From IMG/VR virus record IMGVR_UViG_3300002835_000040: a stretch of DNA of 57,396 bases. One strand, 5' to 3'. This document shows, in pieces, positions 126 to 31,543 of this stretch. The notes under the pieces were generated by a model. That model saw only the letters and a list, made by a program, of their open reading frames with translations, did no database searches and was not told the DNA's origin. This DNA is from an uncultured virus (IMG/VR IMGVR_UViG_3300002835_000040). Lineage: Duplodnaviria; Heunggongvirae; Uroviricota; Caudoviricetes. The translations under genes and the position numbers were made by a program. Within the stretch, counting starts at the first letter, position 1. Every line of letters starts with the position of its first letter.

Positions 126-3100
126 TTAGATGTCTTCAAAAGACGCTCCTGTTGGTGTAATTAAGAACTCAATATCAATGAACTCTAATGCTTTAGTTGG
201 TTTGATATAAATCTTACCTACTAATTGGTTAGCATCTAAGTCTTCAGGAGTATTTTGTACTGTTACACGGAAGTCATATAAACCTCTGTCTCTTCTAATA
301 GCATCTAAGATTGGATTAACAGAGTCAAGGAATTGTTGTCTAACTGTATTATCATTTTGTTCAAACAACAATCTGATAGCCACCGCAGAAATCAATTTAC
401 GAGCTTGTAATAACAATCTTCTAACGTTAATTCTGTCTAATGCTGATTCAGCAATTTGAAGAGTTTTGTTACCCCAAATGACAGTTCCAACGTCGTTGAA
501 AGTTGCGATTGGGTTAATTCTTCCTTTGTAAAGAGTGTCTCTATCTTCTTGAGTTAATCTCTTTCTAGCTCTAACCGCATTTACAATACCTCTTGTGTAA
601 CCCGCAGTTGCAAACCATGGGAACGCTATGTTATCAGTTAACGCTAAGTTTCTTGTAACTTCAGCAGTTGCTGGAATATAGATTTGAGTGTTATTTACTG
701 TATCACGAGTAAGAACCCATGGATAGTAAGTTGCTGTGTAGTTAGAGTCAATTCCTGTTTGTTCTAAACTATCAACCGCTTCTTGTGGGTAAATTAAATT
801 ATCCATCGAAGTTGAGTTTTGTAATAGGTTAAAGTCAGGAGTTGTACAAACATAGATTGAATCCGCTCTTTCGTTTGTAATCATATCAATTGCAGATTCA
901 ACTAATCCACTATTATTAACATAATCAACACCAGGTGTTACAAGAACATTGATGTTTGTTACCTCAGGATTAGCAAAAGTTCTAATACCTAACAAGTATG
1001 CGTAATAGTCGGTGTTTGCGTAATCAATTGTGCCGTCTTCAATAGTGATAATTTTAAATGAACCCCATCCTGTTGATGTTGGATATGGTGCTTGTGGACA
1101 AAAACCAGCTCTAAATTTAGTCTGCCCAAGAGCGTAAGAATCATCATTTGTTCTTCTTTCATCGTAGATATCCCATCCGTCAAAACCACCTTGTACTAAG
1201 AAACTAAACTTTCTTGAGTATAGGAAGTAATATGGATTAGTTGAATCTGTTGGTTCAGAACTAAATGAACCATCACCAACTTCAAATTGTGTAACACCAC
1301 TTACCGTTACAACAGTTGCCCCACTATCCATGTGGAAACCTTTTGTTGTGTTTGGCCAGTTGTTGTAACTACCTTCTTCACACAAATCACCAACAGGTCT
1401 TTGTTTTCCTTTATAGTCGAAGAAATCTGCGTCAACACCTACTGAAGATGAAATACCTAAATAAGTTCTTCTTTTATTATCACCAGGACTAGTTACTGCA
1501 TTATCACCACCTGTAGAACTACCAAATGGAGGATTCGCAATTACTTCACCAGGGATTGCATAGTGTGTTTTATAGACAGGGAAAGGAGATGTACCATTAG
1601 TATAACTTCTTGTTATAAAACCTTCAAATCCACAAGGAAGAGCGTCTAACGGAGCTTCTTCATTCATTTCTAACATAATATATTTAGAAAGAATTGCGTA
1701 TTCACCGTCGATAGAACCTACCTTCTTAGCCACAAAACTGTTATTTGTAGCATCTAATGTACAATTAGTGAATTTCTCAATAACTGATGGGTTAGCATCT
1801 GTATCATAGAAATCTCTAACTATCAAGTCAAATGTTCCATTGTTAAATGAGATATTTGCAATAGAAACCTTAACTTCTCTGTTTGCGGCATTTCCATCAG
1901 GAATGGTATAAACACGGAATAATTTATAAACTAAATTACCTCTAAGTTCAGAAACAACCCAAGGAGATGAAGGTGTTTGGTATCTCTCTAAATAGAAACC
2001 AGTTGTATCAGTATTTGTTGAAGTTCTTGCATCACCTAAAGAAATAAAATTATTAGCGTTTAATCCACGAATAAATCCTTGATTATATCCATAATCCAAC
2101 ATTGTTGAATATCTTTCTTCAACAAACAAAGGAACTTCAGTTCTGTCTTTAGCGAAATTTGACACACCAAACACACTACTAATATAGTTAGCTTGTGATG
2201 TTGCAAATGATGTCTCAAAACTAAACGTGTCGTTTTCATAAGTTCTACCTGAAATCAAGAAAGTAGCATAAGGATTTTGACTTATTCCTGAATAACTACC
2301 TGTACCAATCATTGTTACATCAGAAGTACCTGTCACTTGATATTGTGGTCCGTGTAAGGTTGATGAATATTGAGTAATACCTCTTGAACGTAAAGTTGCA
2401 ACAACAAGATTGTTATATCCTGAATAACTTGTTCCCGAGAATCCGTAATAAAAACCTGATACCGTACCTGTAAATGAGCCTGCAACTCCGTAAGCGGTTC
2501 CCGATAAAGAAGAAACATTTGTGTAATATGAATTACCATAATATGCGTTACCGTTAGCGGGTGGAACAAAATTAGCATAGAACCAAGCGTCATTTGTACC
2601 CGAACAATAATCAATAGTTGTTGATGTAATACTATTAACACCAAATACATTAGTTGAAGCCGTTAATCCAGCAACAATATTTGCAGTTGCTTGAGTACCT
2701 GAAACTGGACCAAAATAATAAGCCGAAGTTCCTGATGTACTATTAGTAACTAAAATACTATGTAATTGTGTTTGTAAGTCGCCTAAAATTGTAGATGTTC
2801 CACCATCAAATTGTGTGTAACCATTAGTATAATATGTGTTTCCACTTATTACACTTGGAACCGCTGAGGTAAATTGTACAGATGTTGTTGAAGCAGTTGA
2901 ACCTGTGAAATCAATAGAGAAAGATGTTCCTCCTGTTATTCCAACTGTACTGCAATTAACATTTGCAACTGTGGTTATTGACCAAGACGGTCCTGCATCA
3001 TAACCTGATAGACCTAAAATTCTTGTTACATACAATTGGTTAGATTGTTGTAGATATGATTTAGCAATATATGCCGCCTCATATTTTGGGATTTGTGTAT

Positions 3101-3305
3101 TCACAAATTTTTCAGGTAACGTACCTCCAAAATAAGTTTGGAATTCATCATAATTAGTGATGAATATAGGTTCAAATGCGGGACCCTTAAGAGTTTCACC
3201 CACAATACCTAAAGTAGTTACACCAACACTTTGTGAAACAAAAGATAAATCTCTCTCTGAGGTATAAACACCTGGAGAAACGAATACTTTGTTTGCTGTA
3301 GCCAT
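126..3305 (-). CDS. Contractile tail sheath protein (T4 gp18-like) with S/T/G-rich insertion
   Basis: N-terminal SPGVYTSERDLS and GETLKGPAFEP; C-terminal WFATAGYTRG, LYKGRINPI, IWGNKTLQ, LDRINVRRLLL, IYIKPTKALEFI. Confidence 0.95.
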   Translation of the reverse strand: MATANKVFVSPGVYTSERDLSFVSQSVGVTTLGIVGETLKGPAFEPIFITNYDEFQTYFGGTLPEKFVNTQIPKYEAAYIAKSYLQQSNQLYVTRILGLSGYDAGPSWSITTVANVNCSTVGITGGTSFSIDFTGSTASTTSVQFTSAVPSVISGNTYYTNGYTQFDGGTSTILGDLQTQLHSILVTNSTSGTSAYYFGPVSGTQATANIVAGLTASTNVFGVNSITSTTIDYCSGTNDAWFYANFVPPANGNAYYGNSYYTNVSSLSGTAYGVAGSFTGTVSGFYYGFSGTSYSGYNNLVVATLRSRGITQYSSTLHGPQYQVTGTSDVTMIGTGSYSGISQNPYATFLISGRTYENDTFSFETSFATSQANYISSVFGVSNFAKDRTEVPLFVEERYSTMLDYGYNQGFIRGLNANNFISLGDARTSTNTDTTGFYLERYQTPSSPWVVSELRGNLVYKLFRVYTIPDGNAANREVKVSIANISFNNGTFDLIVRDFYDTDANPSVIEKFTNCTLDATNNSFVAKKVGSIDGEYAILSKYIMLEMNEEAPLDALPCGFEGFITRSYTNGTSPFPVYKTHYAIPGEVIANPPFGSSTGGDNAVTSPGDNKRRTYLGISSSVGVDADFFDYKGKQRPVGDLCEEGSYNNWPNTTKGFHMDSGATVVTVSGVTQFEVGDGSFSSEPTDSTNPYYFLYSRKFSFLVQGGFDGWDIYDERRTNDDSYALGQTKFRAGFCPQAPYPTSTGWGSFKIITIEDGTIDYANTDYYAYLLGIRTFANPEVTNINVLVTPGVDYVNNSGLVESAIDMITNERADSIYVCTTPDFNLLQNSTSMDNLIYPQEAVDSLEQTGIDSNYTATYYPWVLTRDTVNNTQIYIPATAEVTRNLALTDNIAFPWFATAGYTRGIVNAVRARKRLTQEDRDTLYKGRINPIATFNDVGTVIWGNKTLQIAESALDRINVRRLLLQARKLISAVAIRLLFEQNDNTVRQQFLDSVNPILDAIRRDRGLYDFRVTVQNTPEDLDANQLVGKIYIKPTKALEFIDIEFLITPTGASFEDI

Positions 3306-12993: not shown

Positions 12994-15831
12994 TTATATG
13001 TTTTCAACGTAAATTTTGTTTTCCGCAGTAAATGTTCTAGCCGAAAATGTATATAAACTTTCACCTGCGTAGTCTATAGTTTGACTCACACCATTACAAT
13101 CCACATAATTTAAAGTTAAGTCAGGTGGTAATGTTTGACAATAAGTTGTTAACTGGAAATTATAACAACTTGTTGGTGTATAAGTCCCTAAGTCAATTAA
13201 ATCAAATCCATCAGGTGATGCAGGACCTGATATCCATCTTGGTGGATAACTAGCATAAGATATAACCGTCATATAACCAATATCTGTGCGTGAACCTAAA
13301 GTTTGACTTACATAATTACCATTAATATTTCTATATTGAACTACCATACTTGAAACTGAGCAATTACCATCTTTTTGATTACCTATTACATACATTTTTA
13401 AAGGTTCTGCCGGTGATGGTGATGGAGTTATACTTAGAGTCGGTGTAACAGTCGGAGTTGGAGTTAATGTAGATGTGTTAGTAGGTGTTTGAGTAATAGT
13501 TGGTGTAGGAGTCAGAGTAGATGTTTTTGTTGGTGTTGGAGTTAATGTTGATGTTTTTGTTGGTGTTGGTGTCACTGTTTTTGTCGGTGTTGGGGTATTT
13601 GTTTCTGTGGGTGTTGGTGTTGTACCAATTGTCGCAGTTACGGATGGAGTTGGGGTATTTGTTGGTGTTAATGTTGGTGTAGGTGTTGGCAAGTTTGGAA
13701 TTACACATGTTAAAATTACAGTTTGGTCTTCTTCAATAAGATATAAATAAAAATTATTATAACAACAATTAGGTATTGTTGTATTATTTACTGTGAATGG
13801 AAATGTTTGATTTGAAGTAATTAAATATCTTGGGTTATCTTCTGAAACTTCATAATACAAATTAAATGTTTTATCCGCAAAAGTAGTTGAACTAAAAGTT
13901 AAATTATCTCCCGATACTATTATACAAATATCATTAATTAATCCATCTGAACAGTCAGGACATCCATAATCAAAAAGTAAAAACGGACTTTTTAAAATTT
14001 CAAAATTATGTATAACTTCGGGATAACTTAATGGTTCTGTATACATTCTAAATTGTGAAATAGCACCATCAAACGTACCACCAAATGTTGGTTCAATTAA
14101 AATATTAGTAGTTAATGCCGATAATGAAGTTCCCGATAAAGTTTGATTTGGCATAACCTCAGGGTCTTGCATGTAAGTCAATCCTGTTAAGGTTGTTGGA
14201 CATCCTGTAAAGGTTAAACTTTCTCTTAACCCTTGAGAACCACCACCCCATGATAAGTTAAAAGGAACACCTAATTGTTTTTCTTTTTCTGTGTTTAACG
14301 CTCTTGGAATTACTTCTTCAAATCCATTAATAACATAAAATAATCTTCCGTTAATATAAATTTTTAAAACACCTAATCTATCTTCTCTCTCAATTAACCA
14401 TCTTTCATTTAGGTTAACTATTTCAACCTCTTCAGCAGGTGCCGAACCTTCATGAGTAATAGGTGGTTGAATAAGTAAGATACTATTATTTGATAAACTA
14501 TCAACATACTCTGTATCACTAATCAATCCTAATCCACCCCTGTAATATAAATCACAAGTATCAAAGTAAGTACTTCTTTCCCACACACAATCAACTAAAA
14601 TCCAATGTTCTTTTGTTGTGTAATCTGAATTTAAATCTTCACAATAATCAAAAATTTGATTTGATGAACAATATTCTGTAATAGTATAACCTGTTTGATA
14701 AGTAATTCCTGTTGTTGGACAAGTCCCCGTTGTAATACATCCTCCTGTAAATGTTAATACTTTAACACAGACTTTTGGATTTTTAGGGTCACCAGATAAT
14801 CTTAAAGAAAACGAATTTGACATTGAGTCGTATAACGGGTCTTTATCACTATTTGGGACTTGTGTGGTTGCATTACATCCACAGTTACAATCGGTATTAT
14901 GTTGTGCTTTATAAACTAAAGGTTCGTATACCTCAACACATCTTGAATTGGTAACACCCGTGTTTGAACACGCACAAGTTTCTAAACATCCTGATAAAAC
15001 TGAAGTTACTCTTGTATATCCACTATCTGAAGATGGTGAACCTGAGTCATGATGATAAAATTTATTTTCAGCTCTAGCTCCAAAATAAAAAAATGTGTTA
15101 TCGTTTTCAGGATAAGTTAAATTTAAAGTTGTTTGAAATGATGTCGGGGCAAATTCATCAACATATCTTGGTCTAATTAACATTTCAGCAGTCCAACCTT
15201 CATTAGTTCTGGTTGGGAATGTTTCGTAGTCATATCCAAACAATTTAAAAAACCCTTGGTAAAAACCGCCGTATAATTGATTATAATATGTTATAGTTAA
15301 ACCTGATTTTGAAACCATATTATAAATGGTGTCTTTTGTATTACCCGAAAATCTTTCGTTTGGTGGATTAGTATAACCTGTTATTTGAAATAATTTTGTT
15401 CTTCTGTCAAAGTGATATCTATCCCACTTACTTGACCCAGTGAATAACCCCATCGTATAATTAATTGTTTCACCAGTCATCTGAGGAACTAAACCGTTAT
15501 CTATACCTGTTAATCCTATATCACATAATGTAGATGCGGTTAAACAATTTAAATCTTGATTAAGTGGATTGTAGTTATTTAACGAAACTAAAGTATTACC
15601 TGATAAAAAATCACCATAGTTAATCGTTAGTTTTTGTGATGATAAAGGATTATTTAAATCAAAATAAATCGGTAATCTATTACCATCATTATAACCAATA
15701 AGATTAGTTGAAAATACAACTTCTTCATTATAATCTTTTTCATCTGATGCTAAACAAATGTCAAAAATTTTTGGGACGGGTTTAACATACCACTTTTTAA
15801 AATTGAACTGATTTATATTCTGTTGAGCCAT
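12994..15831 (-). CDS. Large virion-associated protein: LamG/concanavalin-like domain, Pro/Thr stalk, Cys-containing C-terminal modules
   Basis: LKIYINGRL...FDGAISQFRMYTEPLSYPEVIHNF resembles a LamG C-terminus; ~95-aa PT tract; TATTTAT 7 nt upstream. Confidence 0.65.
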   Translation of the reverse strand: MAQQNINQFNFKKWYVKPVPKIFDICLASDEKDYNEEVVFSTNLIGYNDGNRLPIYFDLNNPLSSQKLTINYGDFLSGNTLVSLNNYNPLNQDLNCLTASTLCDIGLTGIDNGLVPQMTGETINYTMGLFTGSSKWDRYHFDRRTKLFQITGYTNPPNERFSGNTKDTIYNMVSKSGLTITYYNQLYGGFYQGFFKLFGYDYETFPTRTNEGWTAEMLIRPRYVDEFAPTSFQTTLNLTYPENDNTFFYFGARAENKFYHHDSGSPSSDSGYTRVTSVLSGCLETCACSNTGVTNSRCVEVYEPLVYKAQHNTDCNCGCNATTQVPNSDKDPLYDSMSNSFSLRLSGDPKNPKVCVKVLTFTGGCITTGTCPTTGITYQTGYTITEYCSSNQIFDYCEDLNSDYTTKEHWILVDCVWERSTYFDTCDLYYRGGLGLISDTEYVDSLSNNSILLIQPPITHEGSAPAEEVEIVNLNERWLIEREDRLGVLKIYINGRLFYVINGFEEVIPRALNTEKEKQLGVPFNLSWGGGSQGLRESLTFTGCPTTLTGLTYMQDPEVMPNQTLSGTSLSALTTNILIEPTFGGTFDGAISQFRMYTEPLSYPEVIHNFEILKSPFLLFDYGCPDCSDGLINDICIIVSGDNLTFSSTTFADKTFNLYYEVSEDNPRYLITSNQTFPFTVNNTTIPNCCYNNFYLYLIEEDQTVILTCVIPNLPTPTPTLTPTNTPTPSVTATIGTTPTPTETNTPTPTKTVTPTPTKTSTLTPTPTKTSTLTPTPTITQTPTNTSTLTPTPTVTPTLSITPSPSPAEPLKMYVIGNQKDGNCSVSSMVVQYRNINGNYVSQTLGSRTDIGYMTVISYASYPPRWISGPASPDGFDLIDLGTYTPTSCYNFQLTTYCQTLPPDLTLNYVDCNGVSQTIDYAGESLYTFSARTFTAENKIYVENI
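13405..13692 (-). repeat. Pro/Thr-rich (TPTPT) low-complexity coding repeat
   Basis: LPTPTPTLTPTNTPTPSVT...TPTPTKTSTL x2...PSPSP. Confidence 0.9.
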
Positions 15832-21025: not shown

Positions 21026-22659
21026 TAACAATAGGATATAGTACACGAAATTCTAACCCTGGATTTCAAGAATATTTAAAAAAATCTTCTGGACACCCCA
21101 AGGTTCAAATTATTGAAAAGGTAAACAATGGTGAAAAAAATCTTTCACAAGTTTATAACGAGATTATATCAGAATCTAATTTTGATATAATTGTATTATG
21201 TCATGACGATATCTATTTTGACACAAATAATTGGGCATCAAAATTAGTTAAACAATTTGATAAAAATCTTGATTATGGAATATTTGGTATGGCAGGTACA
21301 ACAGAAATGCCTACAAGTGGAATGTGGTGGGAAGATAGGTCAAAGATGTATGGTATAGTAAATCATGAATCTGAAGGTAAAAAATGGGAATCAAAATATT
21401 CTGAGTCATTAGGAAATGATATTAAAGAAGTAGTTGTTGTTGATGGTGTGTTTATTGCAATTAACAAACAAAAGATTAATTCTAATTTTGACGAAACAGT
21501 TAGTGGATTTCACATGTACGATGTCAATTTTTGTTTTAAAAATTTTTTAGAAAATGTTAAAATTGGTGTTTTAACTAATATCAGATTAACACATAAATCT
21601 ATTGGAATGACAAATGAAAAGTGGGAAGAAAATAAAAATTTATTTGCTAGGAAATATTCAGAATTTTTACCTAAAAAAGTAAAATTTACTGAACATAGTA
21701 AATTAAATGTATTAATATCATGTTTATTTTTTCAAAAATTTACAGGTTCTGAGATGTATGTTTTTGAACTTGCTAAAAATTTGGTAAAACAAAATTGTGA
21801 TGTCACAATTGTTGCCTCTGAAACAAATGGTCCATTAGTGTTAATGGCAACTAAATTAGGGATTAAAGTTAAAAATATTAAAGAACCACCTGGATATAAA
21901 TTAGGTGATGGACAATGGGTTGTAATGACACCTGAAGGTCCTAAACCATCAATCCCTAATAATTATTATAAAATTTCAGAAACCCATTTTGATATTATCC
22001 ATTGTCAACATAAACCTATTGTTAATATGATGAATTTGTTATATCCAAATGTTGATAAAATATCAACAATTCATTCTGAAGTAATTGAATTAGAAAATCC
22101 TGTTATTCATCCGTCAATTAAAAAATATATTGCAATTAGACCTGAGATTAAAGAACATATTATTTCTAATTTTAACATATCTGAAAATATGGTTGACGTT
22201 ATCTATAACCCAATAGATGAAACTAAATTTTTTAATAAAGATTTAAATTCTGAAAATTACGTTCTATTTGTCGGTTCAATTGATTACCTGAGAGAAAAAA
22301 CTATACGTGATTTAATTGAGTACACTAAAGAAAATAATAAAGAATTATGGTTAGTCGGTGAAAACAAATCAAATTATCTTTCAGATATAACTAAAAATTC
22401 TCATGTTAAATTTCATGGACCAACATTAGACGTGGATAAATATATTCATAAATGTTCTGAAACCGCAGGAATACTTTTAGGTAGAACTACTATTGAAGGA
22501 TGGATGTGTGGTAAAAAAGGATGGATATATGATGTGGATAATATGGGTAACGTAATTAATAAAGAATTATTTGATATTCCTGAGGACACTGATAAATTTA
22601 AATCTTTAAATGTTACTCAAAAAATTAAAAAAAGTTATTTAGATATATTAAATAAATGA
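21022..22659 (+). CDS. Two-domain glycosyltransferase (GT-A/GT2-like plus GT-B/GT4-like)
   Basis: N-half LSQVYN, LCHDDI, VVDGVF, FHMYDV; C-half TGSEMYVFELAKNL, IYNPID, GRTTIEGWMCG. Confidence 0.85.
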   Translation: MITIGYSTRNSNPGFQEYLKKSSGHPKVQIIEKVNNGEKNLSQVYNEIISESNFDIIVLCHDDIYFDTNNWASKLVKQFDKNLDYGIFGMAGTTEMPTSGMWWEDRSKMYGIVNHESEGKKWESKYSESLGNDIKEVVVVDGVFIAINKQKINSNFDETVSGFHMYDVNFCFKNFLENVKIGVLTNIRLTHKSIGMTNEKWEENKNLFARKYSEFLPKKVKFTEHSKLNVLISCLFFQKFTGSEMYVFELAKNLVKQNCDVTIVASETNGPLVLMATKLGIKVKNIKEPPGYKLGDGQWVVMTPEGPKPSIPNNYYKISETHFDIIHCQHKPIVNMMNLLYPNVDKISTIHSEVIELENPVIHPSIKKYIAIRPEIKEHIISNFNISENMVDVIYNPIDETKFFNKDLNSENYVLFVGSIDYLREKTIRDLIEYTKENNKELWLVGENKSNYLSDITKNSHVKFHGPTLDVDKYIHKCSETAGILLGRTTIEGWMCGKKGWIYDVDNMGNVINKELFDIPEDTDKFKSLNVTQKIKKSYLDILNK

Positions 22660-23339
22660 TAGTTGGTAATGGGTTAATTGCTTCAGTTTTTTTAAAAAAT
22701 GAAGAAAATTATAAAGATTATATTATTTTTGCATCAGGTGTTTCCTCATCAAAAGAGACTAAATATGAGGAATTTGAAAGAGAAAAAACTTTATTAAAAA
22801 ATGTATTAAAAAAAAATAATGATTTAAAATTAATATATTTCAGTACTATTCTTTCAGATAAAATTGATAATCCTTATTATCAACACAAATTAAATATTGA
22901 AAATTATATAAAAAAAAATTGTAACAATTATAAAATTTATAGAATACCACAAATTCTAGGTTATAGTGGAAATAATGATAATTTAGTTAATTATTTCGTA
23001 AATAAAATAAAAAAAAACGAGGAGATTAGTTTATATAAAAATGTTAAAAGGTCAATTTTAGACGTTGAGGATTTAAAAAACATTGTTGATGTAAACATAA
23101 AGAGTCCAAAAAATGAAATATTAAATATATCATCAATTGAAAAAATAAGTGTTGTTAATTTATGTAAAAAAATTGGGGATATCCTTAATATAAAACCAAA
23201 AATTAAAACTATTATTGTTGATACAAAATTAGATTGGGATACACGAAATAGTAGAAAAATTAATGAAATAATTAATAGTTTAGATTTAATTAAAAAAAAT
23301 TATACTAATAACACATTAATAAAATATATTAAAAAATAA
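22656..23339 (+). CDS. NAD-dependent epimerase/dehydratase-like (extended SDR)
   Basis: MIVGNGLIA, IFASGVS, YFST, YYQHK (YxxxK). Confidence 0.75.
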   Translation: MIVGNGLIASVFLKNEENYKDYIIFASGVSSSKETKYEEFEREKTLLKNVLKKNNDLKLIYFSTILSDKIDNPYYQHKLNIENYIKKNCNNYKIYRIPQILGYSGNNDNLVNYFVNKIKKNEEISLYKNVKRSILDVEDLKNIVDVNIKSPKNEILNISSIEKISVVNLCKKIGDILNIKPKIKTIIVDTKLDWDTRNSRKINEIINSLDLIKKNYTNNTLIKYIKK

Positions 23340-23340
23340 T

Positions 23341-24057
23341 ATGGTAATTTTAACAGGTTTTTATAACGCTGAAAAATATATTGAGCGTTCTTTATTATCA
23401 ATAATGAGTCAAAGATTTAAAGATTTTACTTGTTATATCACACATGATATGTCCACAGACAATTCAGTTAATATCGTTAAAGAATTAATTAAAGATGACA
23501 ATCGTTTCATACTTATTGACAATTATGAAAAAAAACTTTATCAAGCAGGAAATTTTGATAATGTAATTCGTTATAACAAAAATATTAGTGATAATGAGGT
23601 ATTAGTTGAGGTTGATGGAGATGACTGGTTACCAGATTCGAATGTTTTAACAAGAATCAATGAAGTTTATTCTGACCCTAATGTTTGGATAGCAAATGGT
23701 AGCTTTAAATACTCAAACGGTACTACAGGATTTGCCAAACCCCAAACAAATTTTGAAAATTTAAGGTCACAAGTTTTTACAGCATCCCATATTCGTACTT
23801 GGAGAGCTTTTTTATGGAGAAAAATTAAAGAAGAAGATTTAAAAGATGAAAATGGTAATTATTGGCAATGGAGTGGTGATTTATGTTTTATGTATCCTAT
23901 GTTAGAAATGTCAGGAGAAGAACATTATAAGTTTATGAATGAAATTAATTATGTATATAATGCTGAAAATCCGATAAATGAACATAAAGTCAATATGGGG
24001 ATGGTTACTAACCATTCGTCAAAAATAAGAGAAAAAAAACCTTATAGTAAAATTTAA
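23341..24057 (+). CDS. Glycosyltransferase family 2
   Basis: YNAEKYIERSL, HDMSTDNS, EVDGDDW. Confidence 0.88.
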   Translation: MVILTGFYNAEKYIERSLLSIMSQRFKDFTCYITHDMSTDNSVNIVKELIKDDNRFILIDNYEKKLYQAGNFDNVIRYNKNISDNEVLVEVDGDDWLPDSNVLTRINEVYSDPNVWIANGSFKYSNGTTGFAKPQTNFENLRSQVFTASHIRTWRAFLWRKIKEEDLKDENGNYWQWSGDLCFMYPMLEMSGEEHYKFMNEINYVYNAENPINEHKVNMGMVTNHSSKIREKKPYSKI

Positions 24058-24058
24058 A

Positions 24059-24781
24059 ATGAAAATGTCTAAAAACTTTAATCCAAAAATTTCAGTATGT
24101 ATTCCCTCATACGAGGCAAATGGTAGAGGTGTCGAATTTATTGATAAAAACATCCAATCAATTCTTTCTCAAACCTATAAAAATATAGAAATTATTGTTT
24201 CTGACCATTCAAAAGATGACTCAATTGAAAATTACATTAAAGAGTTGAAGTTGGATAATATAATATATTTGAGAAATACTGAGTACATCGGGTGGCCGGC
24301 ACATAACACTAACAACGCAATTAAAAACTCTACAGGAGATTATATCAAATTAATGAATTTAGACGACTTTATGGTTGGTAATGATTGCATTAAACTAATG
24401 GTTGATTTATTAGATGAAGGTAATCAATGGGTTGTCAGTGGATGCATTCACTATGATTATGGTAATGGAAATTGGATAAATCCAATAATTCCAAAAATTG
24501 ATGGTGACGGTAAACATTTAATTAAAGGTATTAATTTTGTTGGGTGTCCAAGTGTAGGTTTAATTCCTCGTAATGAATATTTTGACACCGAAGTTTTATA
24601 TATGATTGATTGCGAACTTTGGTATCGTATGTTTATAACATATGGTTACCCTGGAGTTTTAAAAGATTATAAGATTGCCGTTGGAGTTGGTGACCACACG
24701 TTAACAAGTCAATGGGAGTCAAAATATAATGAGTTACTTTATAAAGATATTGAGTATTGTAATAAAAAATTTTTAATATGA
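24059..24781 (+). CDS. Glycosyltransferase family 2
   Basis: ISVCIPSYE, SILSQTYKNIEIIVSDHS, NLDD, VGCPS, IDCELW. Confidence 0.88.
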   Translation: MKMSKNFNPKISVCIPSYEANGRGVEFIDKNIQSILSQTYKNIEIIVSDHSKDDSIENYIKELKLDNIIYLRNTEYIGWPAHNTNNAIKNSTGDYIKLMNLDDFMVGNDCIKLMVDLLDEGNQWVVSGCIHYDYGNGNWINPIIPKIDGDGKHLIKGINFVGCPSVGLIPRNEYFDTEVLYMIDCELWYRMFITYGYPGVLKDYKIAVGVGDHTLTSQWESKYNELLYKDIEYCNKKFLI

Positions 24782-25935
24782 AAAATATACAATTGTTTGT
24801 TCCAAAATTTAGGAACGAAGAAATTTTTGAACACATGTCAACTTGTTTAGATAAAGGTTGGACAGGATTAGGGTTTAAAACTGTTGAGATTGAAAATGAA
24901 TGGAAAAATTATACTGGTTTACCTCACGCTCATTTTATAAACTCAAACACGTCAGGTCTTCATTTAGCGGTAAAAATATTGAAGGATACAAATAAATGGT
25001 CAGATGATGATGAAATCATCACAAGTCCATTAACATTTGTATCATCAAATCATGCAATAATGTATGAAAATTTAAAACCTATATTTGCAGATATTGATGA
25101 GTATTTGTGTTTAGACCCTGTATCAGTTGAATCAAAAATAACTAAAAAAACAAAAGCGATTTTATTTATTGGTATTGGTGGTAACACTGGTGAACTTTAT
25201 AAAATTATTGATTTATGTAAAAAACATAAATTAAAATTAATTTTAGACGCCGCTCACATGTCGGGTACATTTGCAAAAAATCCATCTACAGGTGAAATTG
25301 AGCATGTTGGTCATGGGGCAGATGTAACTGTATTTAGTTTTCAAGCAGTTAAAAATTTACCAACTGCTGATTCAGGTATGGTTTGTTTTGCAAATGAAGA
25401 CTACGATACTTTAGTTAGAAAACTATCATGGTTAGGTATTGATAAAGACACATACCAAAGAACTAATGATAAAGGCAATTACAAATGGGAATATGATTTA
25501 GTTGATGTCGGTTACAAATACCATGGAAACTCAATGATGGCTTCAATGGCATTAGTTGGTTTAAAATACCTCGACAAAGACAATAATAGAAGACGAGAAA
25601 TCTGTGAAAAATACGAAAAAGAGTTAACTAAACACGGGATTCAAACAATAAAGACTCAAAAAGATTGTGTTTTATCGTCAAGACATTTATTTCAAATTGT
25701 AGTTAATCAAAGAAATAAATTTATGGAATTATTAAATTCAAGTGGGATTTATCCGGGGGTTCATTACAGAGATAACACACATTATAAAATGTATAAATAC
25801 GGACTAGGAACTTGCCCAAACTCTTTAACTATTTCTGAAAAATTAATAACATTACCTTTACACATGAATTTAACTGAAAATGATATAGAATATATTATAG
25901 AAAAGGTTATTGAAATAAATAAAAATTTAAATTGA
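24778..25935 (+). CDS. DegT/DnrJ/EryC1/StrS PLP-dependent sugar aminotransferase
   Basis: NSNTSGLHLA, LTFVSS, LDAAH, FSFQAVKNLPTADSGM (catalytic Lys present), GYKY. Confidence 0.92.
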   Translation: MKNIQLFVPKFRNEEIFEHMSTCLDKGWTGLGFKTVEIENEWKNYTGLPHAHFINSNTSGLHLAVKILKDTNKWSDDDEIITSPLTFVSSNHAIMYENLKPIFADIDEYLCLDPVSVESKITKKTKAILFIGIGGNTGELYKIIDLCKKHKLKLILDAAHMSGTFAKNPSTGEIEHVGHGADVTVFSFQAVKNLPTADSGMVCFANEDYDTLVRKLSWLGIDKDTYQRTNDKGNYKWEYDLVDVGYKYHGNSMMASMALVGLKYLDKDNNRRREICEKYEKELTKHGIQTIKTQKDCVLSSRHLFQIVVNQRNKFMELLNSSGIYPGVHYRDNTHYKMYKYGLGTCPNSLTISEKLITLPLHMNLTENDIEYIIEKVIEINKNLN

Positions 25936-25936
25936 T

Positions 25937-26356
25937 ATGTTAATTATTCGTGATTTTAAAAGAGATGACTCAACGTGTGAACTATTAGAAGTACTTAAAG
26001 AAGTTTGGTCAGTAGATGAAATAAGTGAATTAACATTAGACAATTGGTTTAAAAATGATAATTACATGGTAATTGCTGAATTTGACGGTAAAATTATTGG
26101 TTCAGCAACTTTACATTTACAACAAAAAATTATTCGTAACGGAGGTATTGCTGGTTGTATTGAGGATGTTGTGGTTAAACAATCTTATAGAGGAAATAAT
26201 ATTGGCACCCAATTAATACAAGAATTAATTAAAAAAGCCGAAAATCTTGGGTGTTATAAAGTAATACTGTCTTGTTTTCCTGATAGAATAAATTTTTATA
26301 AAAAAAATGGTTTTTTTGTGGAATCAACCACCATGAGATATAATTTTAAAAAATGA
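25937..26356 (+). CDS. GNAT acetyltransferase, glucosamine-6-phosphate N-acetyltransferase (GNA1)-like
   Basis: KIIRNGG..GCIEDVVV..YRG..IG..LI....LGCYKVILSC...FY.KNGF. Confidence 0.85.
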   Translation: MLIIRDFKRDDSTCELLEVLKEVWSVDEISELTLDNWFKNDNYMVIAEFDGKIIGSATLHLQQKIIRNGGIAGCIEDVVVKQSYRGNNIGTQLIQELIKKAENLGCYKVILSCFPDRINFYKKNGFFVESTTMRYNFKK

Positions 26357-27066
26357 AATTTGCAATTATTATAAGTACGTACAAAAGGGATGATGGTAAT
26401 ACACCTTTTTTACTTAAAAGATGTTTAAATTCCATATCAAATCAATTACATGATGATTATAAAATTTTTTTAATAGGAGACCGTTATGAAAATAACGAAG
26501 AATTTATAGAAATTTGTAATACTTTTGAAAACAAAGATAAAATATATTTTGAAAATTTAAATATTGCGTCAGAAAGAGACGTTTTTAATAATAAACTTAA
26601 CATTTGGAAATTTGGGGGAGTAAACGCTGTAAATCACGCCATAGATATTTCTAAAAATGAAGGATTTAATTATATTGTTAGGATTGACCATGATGATTTT
26701 TGGGAAAATAATCATTTAAAATCAATTAATGATTGTATTGAACTAACTAATTCAGCGTTTGTTTGTACAAAAAGTAAATATTATGGTGAAGTTTTACCAA
26801 GTACCCCAAGCCATGAAAAATATATAGAATTTAAACCGTCTCCAGGAAATTTAGTTCACTCATCGATATGTTTTGATTTAAATCAACTACCATTAAAATA
26901 TAGAACTTTAGGAGATATAAAATGTGGTGTATACGCCGCAGATGGATGTTTATATTTAGAAATTGCAGAATTAGTTGAAAAAAATAATTTAAAGTCTATA
27001 TTGATAAATGAAATTACTTGTAATGTAGAAAGTGATTCATTTTTTATAAGAAATGGTCGTAATTAA
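26353..27066 (+). CDS. Glycosyltransferase family 2
   Basis: IIISTYKR, LKRCLNSISNQ, RIDHDDFW, ADG. Confidence 0.8.
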   Translation: MKFAIIISTYKRDDGNTPFLLKRCLNSISNQLHDDYKIFLIGDRYENNEEFIEICNTFENKDKIYFENLNIASERDVFNNKLNIWKFGGVNAVNHAIDISKNEGFNYIVRIDHDDFWENNHLKSINDCIELTNSAFVCTKSKYYGEVLPSTPSHEKYIEFKPSPGNLVHSSICFDLNQLPLKYRTLGDIKCGVYAADGCLYLEIAELVEKNNLKSILINEITCNVESDSFFIRNGRN

Positions 27067-27080
27067 TATTAATTAAAAAA

Positions 27081-27884
27081 ATGTATACTGTAGAAAAAAT
27101 ATCAAATTGGGATATTAGAGTTGATATCCAAACAAATAAACCGTGTCAGCTATACGTAGACACGTTTCCGTCATCACCTAAACAATGTTTAAGAGTTCTT
27201 TGGTCTGTTGAACCAAATGAAATTGCAGGATTAAGAGATATTGTAATTAATAGACATAAAGAGTTTGATTTAATATTAACTTGGCACAAAGAAGTATTGG
27301 ATAATTGTTCAAACGCCAGATTATTCCCACACGGGATGTCTTGGATTTTAGATTTTGATTTAACAAAAGAAAAAGAATATTGTGTAACCTCTATTGTTGG
27401 TGGTAAAAAGTTAACCCTAAATCATATTGTTAGACAAGAATTACCAACAGTAATAAACCAAGTTACTTCAGTACCATTACATTTATTTAATAGTAAAAAT
27501 AATCCATATAACGGAAAACCTACAATTGATAGATTTATACAAAATAGTGATATAAAAAATGAATTATTTTATTCTCAATATCATATATCTATTGAAAACG
27601 TATGTCAACCAAATTATTTCAGTGAAAAACTTATTGATTGTTTTCAAACCAATACTATCCCAATTTATTTAGGATGTCCAAACATTGAAAATTTCTTTGA
27701 TGTTAGAGGTATGTTTATAGTTAAAACTTTGGATGACATTGTTAATGTTTGTAATTTAATTACACCTGAAACATACAATGAAATGTTACCTTACGTTAAA
27801 GAAAATTACAAAAGAAGTATCAAATACGCTAAGTTCAGAGAAACATTAAGAGATGAAATAATTGAATTTGTTAAAAATTATTAA
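27081..27884 (+). CDS. GT10 (alpha-1,3-fucosyltransferase-like) glycosyltransferase
   Basis: YHISIEN...YFSEKLIDCF...IPIYLG, the alpha-1,3-FucT motif. Confidence 0.82.
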   Translation: MYTVEKISNWDIRVDIQTNKPCQLYVDTFPSSPKQCLRVLWSVEPNEIAGLRDIVINRHKEFDLILTWHKEVLDNCSNARLFPHGMSWILDFDLTKEKEYCVTSIVGGKKLTLNHIVRQELPTVINQVTSVPLHLFNSKNNPYNGKPTIDRFIQNSDIKNELFYSQYHISIENVCQPNYFSEKLIDCFQTNTIPIYLGCPNIENFFDVRGMFIVKTLDDIVNVCNLITPETYNEMLPYVKENYKRSIKYAKFRETLRDEIIEFVKNY

Positions 27885-27890
27885 TTTATT

Positions 27891-28673
27891 ATGAATTTCG
27901 TTTCGACAAAATTAATGGGTGGTTTGGGAAACTATCTATTCCAAATAGCGACAGCGTATTGTCTATGTTTAAGGGACAATAAAGAATTATTATGTGATGT
28001 GTCAGATTCTATAGTACCACATAAACCATATGTATATTATTTATCAAATATTTTCAGAAAAATTAATTTTATTAATGGTTTTAGTAATTTTACACCATTA
28101 GGGGAAAATGGGTTTTCATACAGTCAATTACCTAAAATTGATGGGAATGTAAAATTGTACGGTTATTTTCAAAGTGAAAAATATTTTATGGATTATAGAA
28201 ATGAAATATTAGAACTTTTTAAAATAGATGATGAAACAAACCAAAAAATAACTGATAAGTATAATGAATTATTAACACTTAATACTTGTTCTATTCATGT
28301 TAGACGTGGTGATTATTTGGGTTTACAAAATTATCATCCAATACAGACTATCGAGTATTATCAAAATGCAATTAAAATTATTGGAGAAGAAAACCATTTT
28401 GTAATATTTTCTGATGATATAAAATGGTGTGAAGAAAACTTTAATTTCCTAAAAAACAAAACATTTATATCAGGTAATACGGATTATGAAGACCTATATT
28501 TAATGTCAATGTGTAAACATAACATAATAGCCAATTCAACATTTAGTTGGTGGGGTGGATGGTTAAATTGTAATATTGATAAAAAAGTAATAATACCATC
28601 TAAATGGTTTGGGATTTCCAATTCACATTTAAATACTAATGATTTATATTGTAATAAATGGATTAAATTATGA
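27891..28673 (+). CDS. GT11 alpha-1,2-fucosyl/colitosyltransferase
   Basis: GGLGNYLFQIA, GYFQSEKYF, SIHVRRGDY, FSDD, NSTFSWW. Confidence 0.92.
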   Translation: MNFVSTKLMGGLGNYLFQIATAYCLCLRDNKELLCDVSDSIVPHKPYVYYLSNIFRKINFINGFSNFTPLGENGFSYSQLPKIDGNVKLYGYFQSEKYFMDYRNEILELFKIDDETNQKITDKYNELLTLNTCSIHVRRGDYLGLQNYHPIQTIEYYQNAIKIIGEENHFVIFSDDIKWCEENFNFLKNKTFISGNTDYEDLYLMSMCKHNIIANSTFSWWGGWLNCNIDKKVIIPSKWFGISNSHLNTNDLYCNKWIKL

Positions 28674-29590
28674 AAGTATTAGTTACAGGTTCAAATGGAT
28701 TATTAGGACGAGCATTAAAAAAAGTTTTAGGAGATGGTCACGTCTACCATACACGAGAAGATGTTGATTTAACAAATTACGAAGAAACATTCAAGTTCTT
28801 TCAAGATAAAGTTTTAAATGAAGGTGTTGATACTATTATCCATACCGCAGCAAGAGTTGGCGGGGTTAACGCAAACATGAATAATAATCAATTATTTTTT
28901 GATGATAATTACATTATTAATAGTAATGTAATTAAAGTATGTTCACTTTTAAAAGTTGATAATTTTGTTAATATATTATCTACTTGTATTTTTCCTCATG
29001 AAAATATTGTTTACCCATTAACTTCAGAACAAATTGATAACGGGCCTCCCCACCCGTCAAATTACGGGTATTCATATGCGAAAAGATTATCAGGTTATGA
29101 AACACAAATTTTTAGAAATGTTTTAAATAAAAATTGGTATTCAGTTGTTCCTACAAATTTATATGGTCCTTATGATAATTTTAATTTAGAGGATAGTCAT
29201 TTAATACCTGGTATGATTCATAGAGCGTATTTGGCTAAACAAAATAATGAAAAATTTGTGATTTGGGGAGATGGTTCACCATTGAGACAATTTGTATATT
29301 CTGAGGATATGGCAAAATTAATTGTTTGGTCTTTAACTAATTGGGTGTCGGAAAAACATTGTATGATGATTGACGAAACCGAAATTTCAGTTATGGAAGT
29401 TGCAAACATTATTAGTAAAAAATTTGGGTTTAATGATGACGATTTAATTTTTGACGAAACAAAACCTAAAGGTCAATTTAAAAAACCTGCATCATCAGAC
29501 ATTAAAAATTTTAATTTTAAATCAATTGAAGACGGTATTAATGAAACTATTGATTGGTTTATACAAAATTACAAAACTGCCAGAAAATGA
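28670..29590 (+). CDS. fcl: GDP-L-fucose synthase / GDP-colitose synthase (Fcl/ColC family)
   Basis: VTGSNGLLG, AARVGG, STCIFP, YSYAKR, PTNLYGPYDNF, SHLIPG, WGDGSPLRQF. Confidence 0.9.
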   Translation: MKVLVTGSNGLLGRALKKVLGDGHVYHTREDVDLTNYEETFKFFQDKVLNEGVDTIIHTAARVGGVNANMNNNQLFFDDNYIINSNVIKVCSLLKVDNFVNILSTCIFPHENIVYPLTSEQIDNGPPHPSNYGYSYAKRLSGYETQIFRNVLNKNWYSVVPTNLYGPYDNFNLEDSHLIPGMIHRAYLAKQNNEKFVIWGDGSPLRQFVYSEDMAKLIVWSLTNWVSEKHCMMIDETEISVMEVANIISKKFGFNDDDLIFDETKPKGQFKKPASSDIKNFNFKSIEDGINETIDWFIQNYKTARK

Positions 29591-30747
29591 AAAAAATAGA
29601 TTTAATTCAAGATACAATTGATAACCAAGATATTGATAATCTTATTCAATGGTTAAAAGAATACCCAAGATTAACAAAAGGACCTAAAACGATTGAGTTT
29701 GAAAATAAATGGTGTGAATGGTTAGGGTCAAAATATTCTGTATTTGTTAATTCAGGGTCATCCGCAAATTTACTTATGTTATATGCTCTTAAAGCTCTTA
29801 ACATGTTAAAAAATAATAAAATTTGTGTACCATCATTATGTTGGGCAACAGATTTATCACCTGTACTTCAGTTTGATATGCACCCATTATTAATTGATTG
29901 TAATTTAGATAACTTGTCAGTTGATTTAAAACATTTGGAAGAAGTGTTCAAACATGAACAACCATCAGTATTAATCTTAGTTTCTGTACTTGGATTATCT
30001 CCTGACATGGATTCGATTGTTAAGTTATGTAAAAAATATGATGTTATTTTACTTGAAGATAATTGCGAATCTCAAGGAACTAAATTTAAAGGAACTAAAC
30101 TTGGTAACTTTGGTTTGATGTCGTCATTTTCAACGTATTTTGGGCATACTATGTCAACAATTGAGGGTGGTGTTATTACAACAAATAGTGAGGAAATTTA
30201 TCAGATATTATTACAACTTAGAAGTCATGGGTGGGATAGGGATTTACCTGAATCAAAACAAAAAGAATTGAGAAACAAGTGGGAAGTTTCTGATTTTTCA
30301 TCCCTTTATACGTTTTATGTTCCAGGGTTTAATTTAAGGAGTACTGATTTACAAGCTCAACTTGGGATTCAACAATTATTAAAAGTTGATAAAATGATTG
30401 ATAATAGATATAAAAACTTTTTATATTACAAATCTAAGTTAGAAGGTAAAACATGGTTTCCAGTAACTTTTGATGACAGTTATACGTCAAATTTTGCAAT
30501 ACCTTTTATCACTAAAACTATTGAAGATAAAAAAAGTTTAATTAAAGAGTTAGAAGAAAATAATATTGCTTGTCGTCCATTAATTTCGGGTTCAATGGGA
30601 ACACAACCATTTTATAAAAAAATATATGGTGAAAATAAACTACCTAATTGTTCAATTATTGATGATAGAGGAGTTTACGTACCAAATCATGATAAAATGA
30701 CAGTTGAGGATATTAATAGAATTTGTGACATCTTATTAAAATATTAA
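29587..30747 (+). CDS. ColD-like GDP-4-keto-6-deoxymannose 3-dehydratase (PLP fold, His in place of Lys); start revised to ATG 29587
   Basis: VNSGSSANLL, EDNCES, FSTYFGHTMSTIEGG (His at the catalytic-Lys position), LRSHGWDRDL, PGFNLR. Confidence 0.8.
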   Translation: MKKIDLIQDTIDNQDIDNLIQWLKEYPRLTKGPKTIEFENKWCEWLGSKYSVFVNSGSSANLLMLYALKALNMLKNNKICVPSLCWATDLSPVLQFDMHPLLIDCNLDNLSVDLKHLEEVFKHEQPSVLILVSVLGLSPDMDSIVKLCKKYDVILLEDNCESQGTKFKGTKLGNFGLMSSFSTYFGHTMSTIEGGVITTNSEEIYQILLQLRSHGWDRDLPESKQKELRNKWEVSDFSSLYTFYVPGFNLRSTDLQAQLGIQQLLKVDKMIDNRYKNFLYYKSKLEGKTWFPVTFDDSYTSNFAIPFITKTIEDKKSLIKELEENNIACRPLISGSMGTQPFYKKIYGENKLPNCSIIDDRGVYVPNHDKMTVEDINRICDILLKY

Positions 30748-30761
30748 TAATTAATGTAAAA

Positions 30762-31538
30762 ATGTTAAAATTTTTTAAACCAATAAGAGGTCATAGAGGT
30801 TATTTTTCATATATGACTGAATCAGTTGTTAACATGCTTAATGTATTGTTAATCTATCCAAATGAAGAATTTAAAGTATATCATGATTTATCAAATATTG
30901 ATGGGTATGGTAGTCATAATATTTATGATGTCTGTTTTATACAAGATAAAAATGATTATTTTTTAAATAAAAATGAGTATTCTAATATTGAGTTAGTAAA
31001 TAATATAGCACAATTAAATCCTTATGACAAGGATACATTTACTAAAGAAAAATTAAAAATGTGTGAATCAATAATAAAAGATAATTTTGTATTAAATGAT
31101 GAAATGAAACAATTGTTTTCATCAAGACACCCTCAAATTGATTTTACAAAAACTATAGGTTTTCATAGAAGGGCAACTGATATGTCAATAATACATGGTT
31201 TACCAACAATAGATTTATCCATAATATTTGAAACATTAGAAAAAGAAGAATTTGAAAATATATTTTTAATGTGTGATAATCTTAATGATTTAATTAAATT
31301 TAAACAAAGATATGGAAATAAATTAATAACTTTTGACGAGTTAACAGCTTCAACAATTGAAAATAAACCATTTTTTAATTTAAAAAATGATGAAGAATTA
31401 ATTAAAAAACATATACAAGAAATTGTTTTTGGAGTATACACTTTAGGTATGACAAAAAAATTAATATGCACTATGTCTAACTTATCAACATTTTCTATTT
31501 TTTCAAACTCAAATTTAGATTATATAAAATTAAATTAA
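30762..31538 (+). CDS. NodZ/GT23-like GDP-sugar (fucosyl) transferase
   Basis: RGYFS, IGFHRRATD, IFLMCD, SNLS resemble fucosyltransferase motifs I-III. Confidence 0.6.
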   Translation: MLKFFKPIRGHRGYFSYMTESVVNMLNVLLIYPNEEFKVYHDLSNIDGYGSHNIYDVCFIQDKNDYFLNKNEYSNIELVNNIAQLNPYDKDTFTKEKLKMCESIIKDNFVLNDEMKQLFSSRHPQIDFTKTIGFHRRATDMSIIHGLPTIDLSIIFETLEKEEFENIFLMCDNLNDLIKFKQRYGNKLITFDELTASTIENKPFFNLKNDEELIKKHIQEIVFGVYTLGMTKKLICTMSNLSTFSIFSNSNLDYIKLN

Positions 31539-31543
31539 AAAAT

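Follow-up and report, generated by a model that had tools for sequence, protein, structure and literature searches.

General protein O-glycosylation in Bacteroidota is directed to the motif D-(S/T)-(A/I/L/V/M/T). In E. coli, the heptosyltransferases Aah and TibC O-glycosylate Ser/Thr residues of the beta-rich adhesins AIDA-I and TibA in the cytoplasm, and are reported to recognize a strand-loop-strand element whose loop begins with the modified residue (PMC3835316). In Clostridioides difficile, SgtA is reported to attach beta-O-linked N-acetylglucosamine (GlcNAc) to Thr in the GPT triplets of BclA3, and to be active as a recombinant soluble fusion protein (PMC7157674). Members of glycosyltransferase (GT) family GT60, such as TcOGNT1 of T. 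cruzi, are described as forming GlcNAc-alpha-1-O-Thr on proteins, their documented acceptors being mucin-like Thr tracts (PMC9472816). For phages, glycosylation of the particle by the phage's own enzymes is documented in the literature examined for mycobacteriophages only, whose GTs modify capsid and tail proteins at the C-termini of the subunits that form the capsid and the tail tube, without mention there of an internal acceptor motif (Freeman et al. 2023, via PMC12619734); a literature search retrieved no phage virion sequon. Here we analyze a recurrent tetrapeptide, [ST]-G-x-T, in proteins encoded by a 57,396-nucleotide (nt) stretch of DNA from an uncultured virus (IMG/VR record IMGVR_UViG_3300002835_000040; the whole stretch is hereafter called the window). 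Its enrichment, residue specificity, lineage restriction and independence of protein fold were established, together with a conserved synteny of GT genes with the genes that carry it. The motif may represent a lineage-acquired acceptor tag for phage-encoded O-glycosylation, a sequence-based proposal to which we assign a probability of about 0.4.

The motif is concentrated in two proteins, p945 (945 aa; 12994..15831, minus strand) and p497 (497 aa; 41624..43117, plus strand), which are probably particle proteins, as judged from fold and gene position. In 20,000 global composition-preserving shuffles per protein, no shuffle reached the 10 strict motifs ([ST]-G-x-T) of p945 (mean 1.86) or the eight of p497 (mean 1.01). 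When shuffling was confined to blocks of 20 or 40 residues, so as to preserve the local composition, the means were 1.7-1.95 for p945 (P<=1e-4) and 1.2-1.3 for p497 (0/20,000 reaching eight), and across both kinds of shuffle at most 2 of 20,000 attained the count of either protein. The strict motif is thus five to nine times above expectation in these strongly enriched, unrelated outer particle proteins. In p945 the sites lie at residues 77 (nt 15592-15603), 119 (15466-15477), 151 (15370-15381), 162 (15337-15348), 176 (15295-15306), 270 (15013-15024), 291 (14950-14961), 374 (14701-14712), 380 (14683-14694) and 549 (14176-14187), all on the minus strand; those of p497, on the plus strand, are at residues 54 (nt 41783-41794), 67 (41822-41833), 73 (41840-41851), 117 (41972-41983), 222 (42287-42298), 226 (42299-42310), 243 (42350-42361) and 336 (42629-42640). 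An unbiased scan of gapped tripeptides in p497 ranked SG.T first (5 vs. 0.43 expected).

Three further structural proteins give weaker signals. The 1059-aa tail sheath protein (126..3305, minus strand), which has large insertions, carries six strict motifs at residues 124, 134, 154, 352, 661 and 669, none of them in its conserved C-terminal core, and its enrichment is borderline (P 0.015 by global and ~0.05 by block shuffles). Four strict motifs in a 487-aa Pro/Thr (PT)-rich protein (53651..55114, minus strand) are significant with local shuffles only (P 0.014-0.023; global P 0.20), and the two in the gp23-type major capsid protein with its insertion (45875..47767, minus strand; residues 203 and 355) are significant with neither (global P 0.14). 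There is no strict motif in the polymerase and one in the helicase, and the remaining 51 open reading frames (ORFs) of at least 80 aa contain four versus 5.1 expected. A broader word, [ST][GA]x[ST], is in excess in p945 (15 vs. 4.0), p497 (12 vs. 2.5), the capsid protein (8 vs. 2.7, P 0.003; 7/8 within residues 100-360) and the PT-rich protein (7 vs. 2.9, P 0.02), and is flat in all other ORFs of the window (22 vs. 23.1). All motif counts of an earlier sequence-only reading for these five proteins, the polymerase and the helicase were reproduced, and the peptides it listed, including its [ST]-A-x-T examples, are present in the translations. The shuffling test that it had suggested left p945 and p497 clearly enriched, globally and locally; its wider claim, that the motif recurs across five virion proteins, stands firmly for these two and marginally for the sheath, and the strict counts of the PT-rich and capsid proteins are non-significant with global shuffles.

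Residue requirements were derived from counts pooled over p945 residues 1-700 and p497, in which [ST]G.T occurs 18 times versus 1.98 expected, while permutations of the same composition (T.G[ST], [ST]GT, [ST]G..T, G[ST].T and [ST].GT) occur at 0.5-1.5 times expectation. At position +1, Ala is enriched (4.1-fold) besides Gly, and Asn, Asp, Ser, Thr and Pro are not. Ser or Thr is nearly obligatory before G.T ([NDAQ]G.T 0 vs. 2.0; GG.T 0 vs. 0.75), and at position +3 Ser is tolerated ([ST]G.S 4.2-fold) but Val and Ile are not ([ST]G.[VI] 0.5-fold). This substitution pattern indicates a requirement for two hydroxyls and a small residue, and the failure of Asp or Asn to substitute argues against a generic Asx/ST cap or positive-phi turn, either of which would accept them. 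The N-x-[ST] sequon is not enriched in these proteins (observed/expected 1.1 and 0.9). Like the acceptor of Bacteroidota O-glycosylation, the motif is short and Ser/Thr-centered, and a Bacteroidota-type host is likely here; however, it has no Asp requirement, admits only Gly or Ala at +1, and coexists with an unenriched D-[ST]-[AILVMT] word (6 vs. 4.5 and 25 vs. 25.6; observed/expected 1.3 and 1.0), which bears out the proposal that the two are distinct.

Since the codons encoding the motif vary, the selection operates at the level of the protein, and a DNA-level explanation was rejected. Repeated DNA is limited to the PT linker of p945, apart from one 19-nt family that merely mirrors TGYT peptides. 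A profile comparison of p945 with p497 (hhalign) returned a probability of 0.13%, which agrees with the view that the motif was selected in non-homologous proteins; a domain shared by the two, suggested by a BLASTP match (E 8e-4), found no support in this comparison.

With respect to taxonomic distribution, the window is T4-related myovirus DNA of 57.4 kb and ~30% G+C that encodes a gp23-type capsid protein, a T4-type portal, a prohead protease, a large terminase, the sheath and a family-B polymerase. Its close relatives are uncultured contigs of up to ~300 kb, among them G002 (291,867 bp, rated 99% complete), which is syntenic with the window. The nearest cultured or known relatives of the capsid protein are distant, namely Flavobacterium phage immuto (38%), an uncultured 484-kb phage (44%) and Microcystis phage Mel-JY01, and neither p945, p497 nor the fibre of one relative has a match among 50,697 phage records, which marks the lineage as uncultured. 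ORFs enriched at Poisson P<1e-3 number 2/56 in the window, 7/306 in G002, 4/254 in G003 and 4/245 in G004, versus none of the 993 ORFs of four control phage genomes: T4 (99 kb; 0/113), immuto (0/184), Mel-JY01 (0/223) and the first 400 of 484 kb of LR756508 (0/473). Named T4 particle proteins have 18 copies versus 15.3 expected, gp34 having none versus 2.0. In G002, enrichment falls on the orthologues of p945, p497 and the sheath, on ORFs clustered at 54-72 kb and on two small proteins close to 170 kb; several of the enriched ORFs carry SprB, YadA-like, Y_Y_Y or PA14/GLEYA modules. Two fibres have no sequence relatives among solved structures. A link to the classical phage tail-fibre repeat is not supported by any search, Pfam having assigned no family to 6/7 motif-rich neighbors.

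The motif shows both persistence and turnover within protein families. At E<=1e-3, 1,987 hits to p945 and 3,265 to p497 were obtained among the candidates scored. Orthologues of p945 are enriched across all 80 related loci (pooled, 919 vs. 175.4), and six of the p945 sites persist in a 58-sequence alignment with identities down to 30%. In 121 sequences, p945 sites 270, 291, 374 and 380 are near-invariant, whereas sites 77 and 176 are variable; likewise, p497 site 243 is kept in 120/121 and site 117 in 108/121, sites 54 and 336 are found in few, and p497 homologues show new ones at 192, 319, 339 and 351. Per homologue, 2.0, 5.9 and 1.9 sites lie off the conserved columns, versus whole-region expectations of 1.0, 1.1 and 0.7. 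The motif sites of four sheath orthologues (60-78% identical) occupy 14 columns in all, and G alternates with A, and T with S, within columns. Among 185,579 species genomes scanned, there were 13 loci with distant p945 homologues; the motif is enriched in five of eight full-length outgroup proteins (5 vs. 0.43, 6 vs. 0.17, 3 vs. 0.31, 2 vs. 0.19 and 12 vs. 0.98) and absent from the other three (summed expectation 0.77), where the counterpart of site 151 reads D/R-G-N-N. Distant p497 homologues (30-37% identity) have no sites in three of four phages (expectation ~0.2 each) and four versus 0.44 in the remaining one. As motif-free homologues exist for both proteins, the fold does not need the motif.

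One of these outgroup phages comes from a single-cell assembly labelled Prochlorococcus (G012), which holds two related-phage contigs (contig 12, L267-L269, and contig 9, L275). Its polymerase is 49% and its portal 62% identical, its motif enrichment is very strong (37 vs. 8.1, 33 vs. 7.0 and 12 vs. 0.98), and its p945 homologue has no match in cultured phages.

Predicted structures place most sites in loops of adhesin-like proteins. The conserved N-terminal ~700 aa of p945 contain a ConA/LamG-like jelly roll and are followed by a mucin-like PT linker (residues ~713-805; 13417..13695, minus strand), the sole repeated DNA of the gene, and a variable C-terminal domain. The AlphaFold2 (AF2) model of the N-terminal 700 residues has a predicted local distance difference test (pLDDT) score of 83; it matches viral LamG/ConA-like jelly-roll proteins in BFVD, including 'virion structural proteins' of S-PM2 (E 1e-4 to 1e-2), and matches in the PDB are weak lectin-like jelly rolls alone (E>1e-3). 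The model of p497 (pLDDT 71.6) consists, according to fold matches, of a beta-sandwich N-terminal half and tandem Ig/FN3-like domains at the C-terminal end. DSSP assignments on the two AF2 models put Gly(+1) in coil at 14/18 sites, with a strand or helix starting 2-8 residues further on at most sites; Thr(+3) is the first residue of a predicted strand at p945 sites 77 and 119 and p497 site 73, and the best-conserved p497 site, 243, falls in a loop that the model places poorly (pLDDT ~41). This arrangement, mostly in modelled loops beside strands, may resemble that of the Aah and TibC substrates, which are beta-rich adhesins modified on Ser/Thr by a cytoplasmic GT. The systems differ in that the substrates here are phage particle proteins, in that a tetrapeptide can be defined here and none is known for Aah, and in that no GT9-type heptosyltransferase was found in a Pfam scan of 52 window ORFs (E<=1e-3). 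The long TP tracts of p945 (residues ~713-805) and of the 487-aa protein are mucin-like linker features separate from the [ST]-G-x-T motif. It was also observed that residues ~280-400 of p945 (window 14640-15000) form a cysteine-rich insertion in the lectin-like domain with many C-x-C and C-x2-C spacings; it holds four of the best-conserved motif sites and could bind metal or form disulfides.

The window also encodes a glycan island (18.5-37 kb) with GT1-, GT2-, GT4-, GT10-, GT11- and GT47-like transferases, a GDP-mannose dehydratase, an Fcl-like enzyme, two DegT aminotransferases and a GNAT protein; no flippase, polymerase, priming phosphoglycosyltransferase or oligosaccharyltransferase family was detected among the 52 window or 24 island ORFs. 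The island is flanked on one side by GT18499 (18499..19749, plus strand; GT-B-type with a weak GT1 match) and on the other by GT34928 (34928..35986, plus strand; GT1-type) and GT35991 (35991..36797, plus strand; GT2-type). Its middle part (22656..32359, plus strand), encoding three GT2 proteins, the GT10-, GT11- and GT47-like proteins, the two DegT aminotransferases, the GNAT protein and the Fcl-like epimerase/reductase, has no homologue in syntenic G002 (130.7-138.4 kb), where the flanking GTs, PhoH and the GDP-mannose 4,6-dehydratase (32361..33341, plus strand) are conserved; it looks like an exchangeable cassette comparable to O-antigen loci. The flanking trio keeps its place beside the structural genes in relatives with no more than 30-46% identity. 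In a phage contig from a rumen metagenome-assembled genome (MAG), whose shared proteins are 30-49% identical and which lacks the sugar island, the order of homologues is still capsid, p497, ..., GT35991, GT34928, 34065, GT18499, 17459, p945, ..., polymerase, ..., sheath. GT18499, a deeply conserved neighbor of p945, is the best match of 71 ORFs in the 80 related loci, and its homologues are 42-47% identical in four distant genomes; in G006 contig 34 the distance to the p945 homologue is 3 kb. Wherever the p945 homologue of a distant genome has at least two sites (four genomes), a GT18499 homologue is present; none was found in two genomes whose p945 homologues have zero sites, in one of which the syntenic slot lacks it. 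Two further assemblies could not be scored, their contigs ending at that spot; one is G012, a possible counter-example, whose contig stops right after the GT34928 homologue. Solved structures include no sequence relatives of GT18499 and weak ones of GT34928 and GT35991.

GT21022 (21022..22659, plus strand; Glyco_tranf_2_5 plus a GT4 N-domain) is the best match of 64 ORFs in the 80 loci and is confined to the close clade. Among the GTs that the sequence-only reading had named as flanking candidates, 18499, 34928 and 35991 are thus deeply conserved beside structural genes, but 21022 is not. Its more specific suggestion, that the motif is the acceptor signal of such a flanking GT, gains from the synteny of the trio and loses from zero-site p497 homologues in two carriers of the GT18499 type, and the better-precedented GT60 lies outside the window. 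In addition, two tandem GT18499 homologues occur in G010 contig 12 (32830-35294), the first with one in-frame TAA, and a PolB-type 3'-5' exonuclease and a dUTPase are encoded between two GTs of the window (19746-21025, plus strand), the pair being missing from the corresponding slot of the distant contig G006 C34. The latter arrangement makes DNA glycosylation a possible alternative role for some of the GTs.

A second candidate enzyme is found in the fibre module of relatives. Strong GT60 homologues (PF11397, E 1e-66 to 1e-68) are encoded amid motif-rich and PT-rich fibre genes in G002 (L086; 62747-63943, minus strand) and G004 (L164; 162128-163372, plus strand, followed by GT2-like and HtrL/YibB-like proteins), and also in G005; the two relative records in which GT60 was not found, of five, are 16% complete or end inside the fibre module. 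Relatives are carried on 415 or more viral contigs, and in 33 of 80 retrieved loci one ORF or more within 10 kb attains P<1e-3. Mucin-like Thr/Pro-rich tracts of the kind documented as GT60 acceptors are present in the window, as linkers and not as the motif. The comparison is limited by the absence of GT60 from the window (Pfam, 52 ORFs) and by documented acceptors that are not [ST]-G-x-T. The SgtA system offers a further parallel in a dedicated enzyme acting on Thr in a Gly-x-Thr context, as the GPT repeat can be read as T-G-P-T. Unlike SgtA, which combines a GT-A domain with tetratricopeptide repeats (TPR), the GT2 proteins of the window are 237-268 aa long and have no TPR match; moreover, the SgtA substrate is a collagen repeat with x=Pro, unlike the mostly hydrophobic, Asn, Ser or Gly residues found at x in this motif, and p945 and p497 are non-collagen. 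Collagen-like ORFs do occur in relatives, but with (G-T-[N/S])n repeats instead of G-x-T (660 GT. vs. 20 G.T). For instance, the giant collagen-like ORF of G002 (181308-190067, minus strand; 2919 aa) consists of (Gly-Thr-Asn/Ser)n triplets behind a fibre-type N-terminus, and that of G004 (168785-183085, plus strand; 4766 aa) was flagged by size and motif expectation alone; both are candidate Thr-rich fibrils.

Chance, composition, DNA repeats and shared ancestry are excluded by these data, and the lack of D/N substitution, the motif-free members of the same folds and the motif-poor beta-rich particle proteins of other phages speak against a generic turn or cap. These exclusions leave selection, specific to the lineage, for a pair of hydroxyls next to a small residue in loops of outer proteins, the genes of which remain linked to GT genes without signs of a lipid carrier. 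It is plausible that [ST]-[G/A]-x-T(>S) is a short tag that would have been gained many times at non-homologous positions on loops of p945, p497 and the sheath insertions, and in relatives also of fibre and adhesin-like proteins. The tag would serve as the acceptor or recognition element of a phage GT for which there is no sign of lipid-carrier machinery, and this enzyme would O-glycosylate folded virion proteins in the cytoplasm, much as Aah and TibC act on their strand-loop-strand 'structural sequon'. The best candidate reader of p945 in the window may be GT18499, and the GT60 homologue of the relatives' fibre module a second candidate; from these associations we infer the attachment of a sugar, its carrier hydroxyl and the enzyme responsible. 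As in mycobacteriophages, the putative system would involve the phage's own GTs for its own particle, although host phylum and phage type differ and an internal tetrapeptide is not described for the mycobacteriophage system in the literature examined. A fuller version, somewhat unlikely as a whole, would hold that [S/T]-[G/A]-x-T is a four-residue O-glycosylation sequon read on folded proteins by phage GTs without a lipid carrier, with the GT18499 family acting on lectin-like p945 and more GTs, including GT60, in the aquatic clade, that it spread through convergent gains among the outer proteins of the particle in a jumbo-phage lineage both abundant and uncultured, and that the swappable island diversifies the glycan.

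Several findings weigh against such an acceptor role. Some concern the candidate enzymes. The association of GT18499 with the motif comes from six informative, incomplete assemblies, and the p497 homologues of the GT18499-positive G006 and G010 have no sites, which means that the presence of GT18499 is not enough and that it cannot account for the sites of p497. A search of five distant genomes, including ones with enriched p945 homologues, did not find GT21022. The same holds for GT60 in the distant, incomplete assemblies with enriched p945 homologues, and GT60 as a universal reader is accordingly unsupported. Others concern the sites themselves: near-invariance extends to x and the flanks (DSGYTRV at 270; TTGITYQTGYT at 374/380) and site 380 lies inside a predicted strand, which looks structural, and in relatives' fibres beside p945 orthologues the motif is part of periodic tandem repeats (...PLSGGTVTGAT... 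and ...TGGTF.V.G..TGLT...). Finally, non-virion proteins show no avoidance of the motif, with four copies versus 5.1 expected in the window and 56 versus 46 in the rest of G002 (minus the 12 most enriched and one collagen-like ORF). Two indications of avoidance were considered and discarded: low observed/expected ratios for enzymes in related loci reflect non-independent homologues, and an apparent depletion in G002 was caused by the one collagen-like ORF (12 vs. 79 expected).

It is quite possible that the motif is instead a structural idiom, in which hydroxyl-small-x-Thr forms a loop-to-strand or loop-to-helix cap, or a hydroxyl ladder for folding or oligomer packing, with nothing attached, and any sugars sit on the Pro/Thr linkers. 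This explanation stays close because some sites are invariant together with their flanks and because fibres use the motif periodically. It accommodates the four near-invariant p945 sites, the coil immediately before a secondary-structure element at 14/18 sites, the strands opened by Thr(+3), the fixed period in relatives' fibres, the SprB, YadA-like and PA14 adhesin modules of some enriched ORFs and the lack of avoidance, and sugars on linkers would suit the mucin-like acceptors documented for GT60 (PMC9472816), given that such tracts are present here. It sits less well with the same folds lacking the motif (no sites in 3/4 p497 and 3/8 p945 homologues), with the absence of D/N at position 0 and of N/D at +1, and with the unenriched particle proteins, fibres and sheaths included, of T4, immuto, Mel-JY01 and LR756508; p497 site 243, kept in 120/121 sequences, lies in a loop that the model cannot place.

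An unlikely alternative is that the motif marks proteins for a partner other than a GT, such as a kinase, an acyl- or methyl-transferase or a lineage-specific assembly chaperone, or that it forms a paired-hydroxyl ligand-binding surface on receptor-binding proteins. Selection of paired hydroxyls next to a small residue, specific to the lineage and independent of fold, would fit this as well, the enriched proteins are lectin-like or adhesin-like, and the p497 sites do not track the GT18499 homologue; yet no candidate enzyme or chaperone of this kind was identified in the window, and among the conserved non-structural neighbors of these genes in the lineage GTs stand out most. An artefact of statistics or ascertainment, through post-hoc choice of the motif, S/T/G-rich composition, hidden homology or DNA repeats, is most improbable and unsupported for p945 and p497: the motif was picked by eye after the sequence had been read, and the strict counts of three proteins are marginal or non-significant, but the excess withstood local and global shuffles, the flat same-composition permutations and the unbiased p497 scan, was replicated in the 80 pooled p945 loci and in three further genomes, and involves varied codons and no profile homology.

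As for the host, a Bacteroidota-type bacterium is likely, since SprB repeats occur in relatives' fibre proteins and the closest cultured capsid relative is a Flavobacterium phage. SprB repeats (PF13573), typical of Bacteroidota gliding adhesins, were observed in fibre-module proteins of G002 (L085/L086; 56706-58295 and 64790-67099) and G004 (L163; 156784-158946), and two clade contigs (L249, L250) were binned in a Bacteroidetes MAG, which together with the repeats hints at the same host. The 'moraphages' form a described lineage of freshwater jumbo phages that share four core GT orthogroups and are predicted to infect Bacteroidota (PMC12619734), and the lineage of the window may be related to them. 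The protein L261 has no homologue in cultured phages. Among other genes of the window, one (7129-8634, plus strand) encodes a 501-aa protein whose first 230 residues form a complete Fe/Mn superoxide dismutase (Sod_Fe_N, E 1e-22; Sod_Fe_C, E 1e-40) and whose C-terminal half belongs to no family, the G002 counterpart being just 244 aa long; another (43114-43632, plus strand) encodes a 172-aa protein with a DUF6576 match (E 5e-9) and no counterpart in G002.

If the motif proves to be purely structural, it would represent a lineage-specific folding idiom of modest interest. If it is an acceptor tag, it would provide the first sequence rule for phage particle glycosylation and would explain the hypervariable sugar islands, free of lipid-carrier signs, of abundant aquatic jumbo phages, and glycan sites would become predictable from metagenomes.

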